From Escherichia coli (GTDB taxonomy: Bacteria > Pseudomonadota > Gammaproteobacteria > Enterobacterales > Enterobacteriaceae), in the NCBI RefSeq assembly GCF_016903815.1, contig NZ_CP069973.1: a stretch of 64,000 nt of DNA. One strand, 5' to 3'. Both the position numbers and the translations under genes were made by a program. Shown here piece after piece: positions 45,755 to 52,260 of this stretch. The notes below the pieces were generated by a model. That model made no database searches. It was not told where the DNA came from and saw nothing but the letters and a program-made list of their open reading frames with translations. The stretch's first letter is position 1, and each line of letters opens with the position of its first letter.

Positions 45755-46201
45755 TTATGAGCTGAGGGTTTGATTTAACAAAGCAAGCACCTGGTCGGCG
45801 TCGCCCTGTCGCAGTTGGTCGATAAAATCCTGGTGGATAATTTTGCGGCATAGCGTGCCGATGATTTTGACCTGATCCTCTTCGCCACTTTGCGGCACAC
45901 CGAGGCAGATCCAGCAATTGACGTCTTCGCCATCGCTGGCTTTCCAGTCAATGGCCTGCGCTTTGCGGGCGAATAACACGAACGGTTGTTTAACGCAGGC
46001 GCTTTTACCGTGCGGCACGGCGACACCGGAACCAAATCCCGTGGAGTGCATTTTTTCGCGCAGCAGCAGGGTTTGCAGGAATTGATGTGAGTCGGTGATA
46101 AAACCGTTTTGTAACGCCATTGTCGCCAACTGCTTCAGAACGGAATAAGTGCCATTGCCCTGAATATTCAGGTCAATACAGCTTGCAGTAAGTGCTGCCA
46201 T
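45755..46201 (-). CDS. frvA: PTS fructose-like EIIA component
   Basis: 148 aa from ATG 46201 (MAALTASCIDLNIQ...); EIIA-2 fold with phospho-His region HGKSACV. Confidence 0.88.
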   Translation of the reverse strand: MAALTASCIDLNIQGNGTYSVLKQLATMALQNGFITDSHQFLQTLLLREKMHSTGFGSGVAVPHGKSACVKQPFVLFARKAQAIDWKASDGEDVNCWICLGVPQSGEEDQVKIIGTLCRKIIHQDFIDQLRQGDADQVLALLNQTLSS

Positions 46202-46677
46202 TATTGGACTCCATGAAAAAATATTATAGTTAATTGTAACGGCGGGGCGGTTTTGTGATGAGCGCGGATATGTCGTGAAGTCGTGACAATATAAGGCAGA
46301 GTGAAGGATAAATTTTGCGGTGTAAGGCACATATTGATGGGCAAAATAAATGCAGTGAATAAAAAATCATTATTTAATGATGTTGTGAATGTTTAACTGC
46401 CGCACATGTTTTGCAGCAAGGTTATTTATATTTGTGGCTTATGAGTCAGCGTGAATTATATCTAATATTTTTTACGATATTTGGTTAAAAACGGCACTAT
46501 TGTTATATTCCTCACGTTCCAGGAAATCAGCGGATTTACTCATATTATGCAGCGGGATACTATCCATAGGCCTGCTGAAGTTGGATTAAAAATTCGAAAG
46601 TGCACACCTTATATTTCTCTATATACGTATTCCTTTTGGAAAGCGTAGGGTCTCTTTTATTTCAGGGAACGTAAATA

Positions 46678-48072
46678 ATGAAAAAATCGACATTATCTTT
46701 AGCCATCGGTTTATTATTGGCATGTAGTACCGGAATGGCAAAAACACAGCATTTAACGCTGGAACAACGCATGGCATTGCTGGAAGAACGCCTGGAAGCG
46801 GCAGAAATGCGGGCAGCAAAAGCAGAGAGCCAGGTTAAACAGCTGCAGACACAACAAGCCGCTGAGATCCGCGAAATTAAGGCTGCCCAGGGCAATACGC
46901 CGGTAAATGGACAGGCAACGGCGGAATCTGCAAAGAAAAATTCCACCTCACCTAATCTTTTGCTCTCAGGTTATGGCGATTTAAAAATCTACGGCGATGT
47001 AGAATTTAATATGGATGCGGAAAGTAATCATGGCCTGCTGGCAATGACCAACGCTGATGTGAATAGCGATCCCACTAATGAACAGTGGAATCTCAATGGT
47101 CGTATTCTGTTAGGTTTTGATGGTATGCGAAAACTGGATAATGGCTATTTCGCCGGGTTCTCCGCACAACCGCTGGGGGACATGCACGGTTCAGTAAATA
47201 TCGATGATGCGGTATTCTTCTTTGGCAAAGAAAACGACTGGAAGGTCAAAGTAGGCCGTTTTGAAGCCTACGATATGTTCCCGCTGAATCAGGATACCTT
47301 TGTTGAACATTCCGGTAATACTGCGAACGATCTTTATGACGATGGCAGCGGTTATATCTATATGATGAAAGAGGGCCGCGGGCGCTCTAACGCTGGCGGT
47401 AATTTCCTCGTCAGCAAACAACTTGATAACTGGTATTTTGAATTAAACACGTTACTTGAAGACGGAACATCTTTATATAATGACGGTAATTATCATGGAC
47501 GCGATATGGAGCAGCAGAAAAATGTTGCTTATCTGCGTCCGGTAATTGCCTGGTCGCCGACGGAAGAATTTACCGTTTCCGCAGCGATGGAAGCGAACGT
47601 GGTAAATAATGCTTATGGTTATACCGATAGCAAGGGTAATTTTGTCGATCAGTCCGATCGTACCGGCTATGGTATGAGCATGACCTGGAATGGCCTGAAA
47701 ACGGATCCGGAAAATGGCGTCGTGGTTAATCTTAATACCGCCTATTTAGATGCTAATAATGAGAAAGATTTCACTGCCGGGATTAACGCGCTGTGGAAAC
47801 GTTTCGAGCTAGGTTATATCTACGCGCACAATAAGATTGATGAATTCAGCGGTGTAGTTTGTGATAACGACTGCTGGATTGATGATGAAGGGACGTACAC
47901 CATTCACACCATTCATGCGTCTTATCAGTTCGCTAATGTGATGGATATGGAGAACTTTAATATTTACCTCGGGACGTATTACTCCATTCTGGATAGCGAC
48001 GGTGATAAAAAACACGGTGATGATACTGATGACCGTTACGGCGCACGCGTTCGCTTTAAATACTTCTTCTGA
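46678..48072 (+). CDS. Putative outer-membrane beta-barrel porin with N-terminal coiled-coil (carbohydrate-porin-like)
   Basis: 464 aa; signal/lipobox-like N-terminus MKKSTLSLAIGLLLACSTGMA; heptad-rich segment LEQRMALLEERLEAAEMRAAKAESQVKQLQ; alternating aromatic/Gly beta-strand pattern; C-terminal ...RFKYFF; long AT-rich upstream region. Confidence 0.6.
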   Translation: MKKSTLSLAIGLLLACSTGMAKTQHLTLEQRMALLEERLEAAEMRAAKAESQVKQLQTQQAAEIREIKAAQGNTPVNGQATAESAKKNSTSPNLLLSGYGDLKIYGDVEFNMDAESNHGLLAMTNADVNSDPTNEQWNLNGRILLGFDGMRKLDNGYFAGFSAQPLGDMHGSVNIDDAVFFFGKENDWKVKVGRFEAYDMFPLNQDTFVEHSGNTANDLYDDGSGYIYMMKEGRGRSNAGGNFLVSKQLDNWYFELNTLLEDGTSLYNDGNYHGRDMEQQKNVAYLRPVIAWSPTEEFTVSAAMEANVVNNAYGYTDSKGNFVDQSDRTGYGMSMTWNGLKTDPENGVVVNLNTAYLDANNEKDFTAGINALWKRFELGYIYAHNKIDEFSGVVCDNDCWIDDEGTYTIHTIHASYQFANVMDMENFNIYLGTYYSILDSDGDKKHGDDTDDRYGARVRFKYFF

Positions 48073-48112
48073 TGAAGGCGCGGTGCTGGATATTTTCCGG
48101 CACCGCAACTCA

Positions 48113-48427
48113 TTATGGCAGGTAAAACACTTCTTGCAGCTCGCTACTGACTGGGCTGTTATCCGGGTTAGCTGGCATAACGTCGGTCATATATTTCCAC
48201 CAACGTTGGCAAACATCAGTGCTGGCTACCGCATTCCACCGTTCTTCAGATTCAATCTCTACCGTGGCAAACAGCAGATTACGCGCTTTGTCGAGGTAAA
48301 TGGCGTAGTTATGCGCACCGTGAGATTTCAACACTGCTTCCAGTTCCGGCCAGATGGGGTTATGCCGACGCTGATACTCTTCGTGGGCGTCGGGGTTAAC
48401 CTGCATTACAAAGGCTTTGCGGATCAT
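48113..48427 (-). CDS. rhaM: L-rhamnose mutarotase
   Basis: 104 aa [29 protein letters not shown]... Confidence 0.95.
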
Positions 48428-48436
48428 GTTTGCTCC

Positions 48437-49261
48437 TTACAGCGCCAGCGCACTGGCGAGTGGTGTAACGCCGAAACGCTGGCCGAGCGCTATCAGCTCT
48501 TCACGACTGATGGTCTGTTTCATGCCGCCCATCGAATAAACCTTCACTAATACTTGTGCTGATTTTTCTGCGGTGTCGATTAAACCGAATGTTTCATCCA
48601 GTGTCGGACCGCTGCCGAAGACGCCGTGGAAGGGCCACAACACCAGCGAATGTTTTTGCATTTCCTGTGCGGTCGCCTGGCCGATTTCGTCGGTGCCGGG
48701 CACCATCCACGGCAAAATGCCGACGCCATCCGGGAACACTACCAGACATTCGGTGCTGCCTTCCCACAGTTGGCGAGTGAAGACCGCGGTGTCGTTTTCC
48801 AGTACGTAGGTAAGGGCGATCAGGTTGGTGGCATGGCAGTGCATGATCACCCGATCTTTACCGTTGGTGGCTTTAATGCGTTCGCAGTGGGAGAGGAAGT
48901 GCGCCGGGAGTTCAGAGGTTGGAACGGCTTCGTGAGTTAGCCCCCAGAGAATGTGGTAGCCCGTGCCGTCGCTGTCGACTTTTACGACGCCTAAGTTAGC
49001 CGCAGGATCAAGCTGGACGTTGCGGAAGAATTTGCCGGAGCCGGTGACAATAAACGGTGTATTTGCCAGTAAAGGCATGGGCTGGCTGAGCGGGATATAG
49101 CGCGGTTGTGCATGAAAGTTGTCGTGATAAGGCGCGATATCGGCGTCATCCAGGCGTAGCGTCAGGTTGCCGCCGTTGCGCTCGTCCCAGCCTTTCAGCC
49201 AGGCGTCGGTGGTGGCTTTAATCATTCCCTGGACAAACCAGGACTGAGTAATGTTTTGCAT
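48437..49261 (-). CDS. rhaD: Rhamnulose-1-phosphate aldolase
   Basis: 274 aa from ATG 49261 ([21 protein letters not shown]...). Confidence 0.95.
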
Positions 49262-49288
49262 GTTCGGTGTTCCTGTAAATTCGGTGTT

Positions 49289-52120: not shown

Positions 52121-52260
52121 CGCGACCTTCTCGTTACTGACAGGAAAATGGGCCATTGGCAACCAGGGAAAGATGAACGTGATGATGTTCACAATTTGCT
52201 GAATTGTGGTGATGTGATGTTCACCGCATTTCCTGAAAATTCACGCTGTATCTTGAATAA
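52121..52260. promoter_or_regulatory. Divergent rhaBAD / rhaSR control region (RhaS site, CRP site, RhaR site)
   Basis: Minus-strand ATCTTTCCCTGGTTGCCAATGGCCCATTTTCCTGTCAGTAACGAGAAGGTCGCG (RhaS half-sites) at 52121-52174; CRP-like TGTGA-N6-TCAC at 52179-52194; repeated tgtggtgatgtgatgttcacc upstream of rhaS. Confidence 0.75.

Follow-up and report, generated by a model that had tools for sequence, protein, structure and literature searches.

Identity and predicted architecture of the porin

What is encoded by the gene that lies between frvA and rhaM on some Escherichia coli chromosomes, and does its place beside the rhamnose genes say anything about its use? We examined 64,000 nucleotides of the E. 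coli contig NZ_CP069973.1 (the window), in which one long open reading frame (ORF) between these two genes occupies positions 46678-48072 on the + strand, begins with ATG and encodes 464 amino acids ending in ...GARVRFKYFF (six-frame ORF list). The initial annotation had described a porin-like protein of this length and ending, which is real, although the start given there (46330) takes in the upstream spacer. By its sequence, the ORF belongs to the RafY glycoporin family (Pfam PF16966, TCDB 1.B.15), of which it is a chromosomal copy that stands alone. The best explanation for the locus as a whole, to which we assign a probability of roughly 0.8, is a wide diffusion pore of this family that stands alone at an inherited chromosomal site and has its own promoter.

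The family assignment is carried by the Pfam profile Porin_8 (PF16966, porin-like glycoporin RafY), which aligned with residues 104-464 over its entire length (model positions 1-372 of 372; E = 3.7e-154, 513.7 bits) and matched 50/50 aligned relatives as well. A megablast search of complete E. coli genomes with the locus also hit plasmids, one of which bears a classical raf operon ending in rafY. The porin following rafD on plasmid NZ_PV023005.1 was taken as the RafY comparator, standing for the characterised raf-operon type (pRSD2 type); it and the window porin both have 464 residues and are 79% identical over 450 of them. The plasmid raf cluster is arranged as rafR, alpha-galactosidase, MFS permease (frameshifted), GH32 hydrolase and porin. 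It was noted that the rafB permease gene of NZ_PV023005.1 (5096-6300 of the fetched locus, L001) is annotated as frameshifted; a complete rafABD set was reported in only 23 of 45 rafY-carrying isolates (PMC12987596).

Since RefSeq, UniRef and a comparative study of O157:H7 already name it, we count the gene as known, and it is correctly annotated as a RafY-family carbohydrate porin, rafY2. RefSeq lists the chromosomal gene as "carbohydrate porin", while UniRef calls the window allele "Porin" and the O157:H7 allele, in the same 90% cluster, "Glycoporin RafY"; the name rafY2 was used for O157:H7, which is without the rafRABD genes (PMC4809568). The exact window protein was found at full length on at least 1000 contigs. 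The family itself is small: a search of 1.84 billion representatives gave only 233 clusters (50% identity) with E <= 0.001, and many of these are fragments. An NCBIfam scan of the porin matched zero family models, and a sequence search of the PDB gave chance matches only (E about 0.8), with no solved structure for the family there.

The N-terminus reads MKKSTLSLAIGLLLACSTGMA followed by KTQ, with predicted cleavage after TGMA. This corresponds to a signal peptide of residues 1-21 (46678-46740, + strand), read from the sequence, whose probable cut site is marked by a conserved G-[FM]-A before the lysine. What is conserved, as judged from the alignment, is thus a signal peptidase I site of the Ala-X-Ala type that follows residue 21. 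The lipobox-like LLAC containing Cys16 is confined to the E. coli chromosomal alleles; the Citrobacter, Kluyvera and Klebsiella orthologues read LLLVANTGFA/KT or LLLAANTGMA/KT (slash, cleavage site), placing V-A-N or A-A-N at the lipobox positions. Because Cys16 is not conserved in close orthologues while the signal peptidase I site is, a lipoprotein is unlikely and this reading was rejected. The signal peptide proposed in the initial annotation was therefore retained and its lipobox was not.

The monomer was modelled with AlphaFold2 from 50 diverse members of the family (mean predicted local distance difference test score, pLDDT, 82; predicted template modelling score 0.71). The model predicts one helix at residues 28-70 with pLDDT above 90, which agrees with the heptad-repeat segment of about 50 residues recorded earlier: one register is hydrophobic at 11 of 15 a/d positions, compared with 6 or fewer in the remaining six registers. 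The motif LTLEQRLxxLExRLxxAExRA is present through the family. Pfam PF11471 (Sugarporin_N), the ScrY-type periplasmic extension, matched the window porin weakly (E = 0.06), and it matched relatives at E <= 0.001 in 9/50 and at E <= 0.1 in 21/50 (best 5.9e-07). Together these features suggest a periplasmic N-terminal coiled-coil helix (46759-46887, + strand). More distant family members, of 350-390 amino acids, are without the extension. The helix is followed by a low-complexity linker of residues 71-99 (46888-46974, + strand), predicted to be disordered (pLDDT below 50 for residues 72-95).

The remainder of the protein, residues 100-464 with an aromatic C-terminus KYFF (46975-48069, + strand), is predicted to form a 16-stranded beta-barrel, with 16 long strands assigned by DSSP between residues 100 and 463 of the model. 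The beta-barrel character that had been read from the sequence is thereby borne out, and the number of strands agrees with the estimate of 16 for the RafY family attributed to TCDB in PMC4827864. The most conserved stretch of the family is the 46-residue loop between strands 5 and 6 (residues 195-240; 47260-47397, + strand; GRFEAYDMFP...GYIYMMKEGRGRS), and the invariant or nearly invariant columns are G193, E196, A197, P202, D206, Y228, R234, G235, R236 and G241. As this loop occupies the place of the constriction loop L3 of classical porins, it probably folds into the pore and narrows it. Comparison of the model with other porins gave values of 23.9 for OprP, 23.5 for Omp-Pst1, 23.0 for both OmpT of V. 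cholerae and Omp32, 22.6 for both DcaP and PorB, 19.5 for OprB, 18.3 for ScrY and 17.9 for LamB. On this model, the barrel would resemble the classical trimeric porins more than LamB or ScrY.

These comparisons bear on the analogy with ScrY that had first been proposed, and on a reading in which the gene would encode a substrate-specific, LamB/ScrY-like porin whose pore contains a sugar-binding site, an aromatic 'greasy slide'. The predicted ScrY-type extension and the name 'carbohydrate porin' are consistent with such a protein, as is the placement by TCDB of the RafY family nearest the sugar porin family (PMC4827864). However, the Pfam scan found no LamB (PF02264) or OprB (PF04966) profile match in the window porin, the model has 16 strands and not 18, and the prototype RafY reportedly acts as a general diffusion pore that shows no specificity for carbohydrates (Andersen et al. 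1998, cited in PMC4827864). We consider a specific sugar porin very unlikely. Of the earlier proposal, the outer-membrane porin stands, as do its N-terminal coiled coil and the tie of its family to oligosaccharide uptake; the LamB/ScrY type of barrel falls.

Distribution, locus history and constraint

At least 80% of the gene was present in 2558/5426 complete E. coli genomes (about 47%), and the chromosomal alleles listed showed 93.7-100% identity to the window. Raf-type copies at 80-90% identity occurred in about 350 further records, with 200 places on plasmids. The gene is thus not universal in the species, and K-12 has no gene at this place, as the initial annotation had suggested: MG1655 carries frvA (b3900), a 300 bp spacer and rhaM (b3901).

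We found three states of the locus. In the first, seen in the window and in O157:H7, the order is frvA, porin, rhaM; frvA is a divergent neighbour (45755-46201, - strand; RefSeq annotation of the O157:H7 locus) and rhaM a convergent one (48113-48427, - strand; ORF list and RefSeq annotation of identical loci), and both lie outside the porin unit. In the second, frvA and rhaM adjoin without a porin (K-12, NCTC9087, O104:H4 and O111:H8), and 167 bp of unrelated sequence takes the place of window positions 46334-48111. This K-12 filler showed no similarity to the porin segment with 7-base words, and no recognisable deletion or replacement scar was seen. In the third state, represented by NCTC9022, a truncated yiiG is followed by the porin and rhaM, and the frv operon is deleted. 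In this strain (L004, 2416-3324) the whole frv operon is gone and the truncated DUF3829 gene yiiG abuts the upstream region of the retained porin.

Loss of the porin through IS1 does occur, as strain HS30-1 (L093, 1788-2577) keeps only the last 77 bp of the gene, between IS1 and rhaM. In strain 1579, an IS1 was also noted inside the same locus. The gene was encountered in mobile form too: the IncI-gamma/K1 conjugative plasmid CP057400.1 (L094, 3840-6588) encodes a protein identical to the window porin, plus rhaM and rhaD, in a segment that matches window positions 46517-49265 at 98.8% and is joined to a Klebsiella/Raoultella-type MFS carrier and a GH32 hydrolase. This porin-rhaM-rhaD stretch looks like a captured chromosomal segment. 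Copies with at least 99% protein identity were present in eight plasmid records.

The wider history of the site was assessed in 80 related loci from species-representative genomes. The rhaM gene lay in the downstream flank in 29 of the 80, directly after the porin in 24 of these 29, and rafR, rafA or rafB adjoined the porin on either side in 9 loci. Orthologues convergent with rhaM were found at the same place in Citrobacter, Kluyvera, Klebsiella, Raoultella and Enterobacter. The Citrobacter orthologue (85% identity) lies between a helix-turn-helix (HTH)/cupin regulator gene and rhaM, convergent with the latter, and in Klebsiella sp. B345 a LacI-type regulator, a GH36 alpha-galactosidase, a LacY-type permease and the porin precede rhaM. 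A neighbour-joining tree of the barrel region grouped the frv/rhaM-locus genes into one clade that includes the raf-linked copies. Plasmid RafY appeared as sister to the E. coli chromosomal genes, a placement that is tentative because the tree carries no support values.

Genes or remnants of rafR, rafA, rafB and rafD were found neither in the upstream spacer nor elsewhere in the 64-kb window (best E = 0.38). Because the orthologues share the same place, and several stand beside chromosomal rafR-rafA-rafB, the E. coli gene appears as an orphan at a raf-associated site of long standing. Read most simply, the porin has been resident here for a long time, with raf genes attached in some genera and absent in E. 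coli, Citrobacter and Kluyvera. The labels of the 120 closest source-named proteins and of the 80 fetched loci were all from Enterobacterales, with one exception. This locus (L033), titled Chryseobacterium sp. 18061, is a contig with frvA, an HTH/cupin gene, the porin and rhaM at enterobacterial identity levels, and its assembly is probably mislabelled or contaminated.

Elsewhere, family porins adjoin the periplasmic trehalase TreA and a GPH symporter, or a GH32 hydrolase and a LacY-like carrier, and a Buttiauxella member stands beside GH13/GH130 enzymes and an ATP-binding cassette transporter. As the relatives adjoin such varied genes of glycoside use, their neighbourhoods support a general link between the RafY family and oligosaccharide uptake. 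The largest paralogue group was observed to be that adjoining TreA and a GPH-family symporter (L048, L049, L053-L055, L060, L061, L066-L068, L076, L081 and others).

Where it is kept, the porin gene is under strong purifying selection. The ratio of nonsynonymous to synonymous substitution rates (dN/dS) was 0.045-0.05 among three E. coli alleles (dS 0.09-0.25) and 0.035-0.05 in comparison with Klebsiella and Citrobacter; against plasmid RafY it was 0.14 at a dS of 0.94.

The upstream region and the rhamnose question

The gene is preceded by an AT-rich region of 344 bases (46334-46677, + strand), which agrees with the stretch of about 350 bp described earlier and is absent along with the gene in K-12-type genomes. 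Its GC content is 0.34-0.38, compared with 0.42-0.49 in the porin gene and 0.52-0.58 in the flanking genes. We aligned 12 upstream regions from five genera (E. coli, Kluyvera, Citrobacter, Trabulsiella and Enterobacter), which were poorly conserved overall. One box, TGTTAnnTnnCTCACG, stands out, with its first 15 positions identical in 12/12. It contains a CRP-like site, TGTTATATTCCTCACG (46501-46516, + strand), with 2 mismatches to TGTGA-N6-TCACA, to which CRP may bind. The core of the box, TGTTAnnTnnCTCAC, is identical in 12/12 regions and the final G in 11/12, the flanks are not conserved, and a nearly invariant TTTAC follows 19 nt downstream. By our own estimate, about 0.1-0.3 CRP-like sites this good are expected by chance per 344 bp, and the box gains weight because it is conserved across genera. 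A second CRP-like site at 46450, with 3 mismatches and no conservation, was rejected.

Nearer the start codon, a Shine-Dalgarno-like AGGGAA (46664-46669, + strand) lies 8 nt before the ATG in a conserved block, TTTATTTCAAGGAA. An inverted repeat, ACGTATTCC-TTTT-GGAAAGCGT, 32-53 nt before the ATG (46625-46646, + strand), would form a leader hairpin. Orthologues have hairpins at the equal position with unrelated stems (GCGTATTT/AAATACGC, CGTCTTCCG/CGGAAGACG, TGAAACCC/GGGTTTCA, CAGGTGAG/CTCACCTG and AAGGTGAATA/TATTCACCTT). Folding indicated the hairpin in most of 34 orthologous loci (L012-L042, L050, L065), with a mean z of -2.0 vs -0.2 for a control stretch further upstream; the E. coli hairpin alone was not significant (z -0.7). 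It could stabilise the leader, act as a regulatory RNA structure or be the operator for a protein. An Rfam scan of 46200-48200 returned nothing at E <= 1, and a candidate promoter, TTAAAA-18-TATATT at 46586-46615, is offered as a lead only. Based on these sequence patterns, catabolite control through CRP and a structured leader are plausible but unproven. The invariant CRP-like box, a leader hairpin that is fixed in place but not in sequence, and the conserved history of the locus are the details that are new here.

The orphan status of the gene raises the question of whether it is a silent leftover of a lost raf operon, with an intact frame and no present function in E. coli. This would fit the window without raf genes, the 53% of genomes from which the gene is missing, its loss through IS1 in strains such as HS30-1 with its 77-bp 3' remnant, and an AT-rich upstream region that might be subject to silencing by H-NS. 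A dN/dS of about 0.05 argues against a functionless relic, since such constraint, at a dS of up to 0.25, is unexpected without function. The full-length exact protein on at least 1000 contigs also speaks against it, as does the conservation of the box, the leader hairpin and the ribosome-binding block across genera in which the gene is likewise an orphan (Citrobacter and Kluyvera). We regard a silent leftover as improbable.

The position of the gene had also suggested a channel for rhamnose or rhamnose-containing oligosaccharides, working and co-regulated with the adjacent rha genes. The porin does adjoin rhaM in at least 24 genomes at species level, spread over several genera, an adjacency that vertical inheritance explains. 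Three distant family members, in Klebsiella spallanzanii, Phytobacter massiliensis and Budvicia diplopodorum (L044, L045 and L051), also occur in clusters with a GH78 alpha-L-rhamnosidase, and the family can therefore serve rhamnoside uptake. It was noted that these porins, 62-64% identical and at a different locus, come after an AraC regulator, an MFS carrier and the rhamnosidase, in what looks like a rhamnoside-uptake cluster.

The arrangement in the window itself points away from rhamnose. The porin is convergent with rhaM, and the space between their stop codons holds a stable hairpin (48080-48106; -28.3 kcal/mol, z -5.5 on the + strand; -21.9 kcal/mol, z -4.5 on the - strand). Neither strand has a clear U run after the stem, which may act as a terminator; a different hairpin-like sequence was observed at this place in K-12-type genomes. 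The porin also has its own upstream region, which retains conserved elements across genera. In a motif comparison of this region with the rhaB-rhaS and rhaT control regions, only one 11-mer, CAGCGTGAATT, was common to the porin upstream (46447-46457) and the rhaB-rhaS intergenic region (reverse-complemented at 52237-52247). With E = 0.036 in a very small search, it was rejected and treated as a chance match because it is not conserved in other genera. Furthermore, K-12 has these rha genes but not the porin, the closely read stretch (43-52 kb) showed no GH78 rhamnosidase in the porin's vicinity, and in relatives the genes directly attached to the orthologue are raf genes. Rhamnose is, in addition, a monosaccharide small enough for general porins. 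A dedicated rhamnose or rhamnoside channel thus seems most improbable, and the link to the rhamnose genes that had been drawn from position was abandoned.

Proposed function and comparison with known systems

Because of its 79% identity to plasmid RafY and the shared architecture, the chromosomal porin most likely works as RafY does. The protein would be exported through the Sec pathway and cleaved by signal peptidase I, after which its C-terminal part would enter the outer membrane as a 16-stranded barrel. The N-terminal heptad helix would remain in the periplasm on its flexible linker and, by analogy with ScrY, probably pair with the helices of two other subunits to form a trimer. The pore is most likely wide and weakly selective, like that of plasmid RafY, and would pass di- to oligosaccharides too bulky for OmpF/OmpC; raffinose, stachyose and maltodextrins are candidate substrates that would then reach inner-membrane carriers. 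Expression would come from the gene's own promoter, probably under catabolite (CRP) control.

Several points weigh against a working diffusion pore of this kind in E. coli. We found no experimental work on the chromosomal copy in the literature searched, and the structure is a monomer prediction. The porin is absent from over half of E. coli genomes and is hence dispensable. Given the absence of raf genes from the 64-kb window, a raffinose pathway would need carriers and enzymes whose genes lie elsewhere. Pore properties could also be altered by the 21% of the sequence in which the protein differs from plasmid RafY. Finally, the promoter and terminator scan gave counts no higher than in shuffled sequence, and this, together with the very AT-rich upstream region, means that the gene may be silent under most conditions.

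A more specific version of the diffusion-pore explanation is a self-standing 'hunger' porin, and not a leftover, switched on by cAMP-CRP through the TGTTA-N6-TCACG box and tuned by the leader hairpin. The strains that carry it, O157:H7 and roughly half of the complete E. coli genomes examined, would thereby have an outer-membrane channel wider than OmpF/OmpC. We put this forward as a speculative and rather doubtful proposal. Its possible consequences can be judged from GlyP, a RafY-family porin of K. pneumoniae. According to a 2026 preprint, which describes the family as larger-pored than OmpK35/36, GlyP was enough to raise the fitness of OmpK35/36-deficient strains after its LacI-type repressor had been mutated (bioRxiv 10.64898/2026.03.29.715108). 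Because a RafY-family porin offsets the loss of the main porins in carbapenem-resistant Klebsiella, any expression of the cryptic E. coli porin would bear on nutrient competition and outer-membrane permeability. If the 'hunger' porin proposal is true, presence or absence of the gene could alter both which plant oligosaccharides a strain can reach in the gut and how readily bulky antibiotics get in, as has been reported for GlyP.

The value of this analysis lies mainly in clarification, as the gene most probably encodes neither a rhamnose channel nor a lipoprotein nor a LamB-type porin. Beyond the existing annotation, it indicates that RafY, the plasmid-borne prototype, has a close relative on the chromosome at a locus that is old and fixed, that raf genes are attached to this locus in some genera and missing in others, and that E. 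coli lineages differ in keeping what would be a wide-channel porin.

Among known systems, plasmid RafY is the nearest. It shares with the window porin its length of 464 amino acids, the layout of signal peptide, coiled coil, linker and barrel, and the C-terminus RFKYFF. The window porin differs in its chromosomal site between frvA and rhaM, where no rafR, rafA, rafB or rafD stands beside it, and the two genes have unrelated upstream regions and differing signal peptide sequences. The rhaM-locus raf clusters of Klebsiella, Raoultella and Enterobacter contain an orthologous porin that is 74-76% identical and likewise convergent with rhaM. These clusters add a LacI-type regulator, a GH36 alpha-galactosidase and a LacY-type permease, whereas in E. 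coli, Citrobacter and Kluyvera the porin stands alone. GlyP belongs to the same family and is described as an alternative porin of greater width that becomes advantageous once the main porins are gone; it is the last gene of a regulator-permease-hydrolase-porin unit under the LacI-type GlyR, while the E. coli gene is without an adjoining regulator.

The more distant comparisons concern architecture. Like ScrY, the RafY family has a role in oligosaccharide uptake and is predicted to have an N-terminal coiled-coil extension in the periplasm, but ScrY and LamB are 18-stranded barrels with a sugar-binding slide, in contrast to the 16 modelled strands of the window porin and its lack of a LamB match. 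OprP, Omp-Pst1, Omp32, OmpU, PorB and DcaP have a long loop between strands 5 and 6 (L3), as predicted for the window porin. These 16-stranded trimeric porins and DcaP have only 8-13% sequence identity to the window porin and belong to different Pfam families. DcaP of Acinetobacter baumannii also has an N-terminal periplasmic coiled coil.

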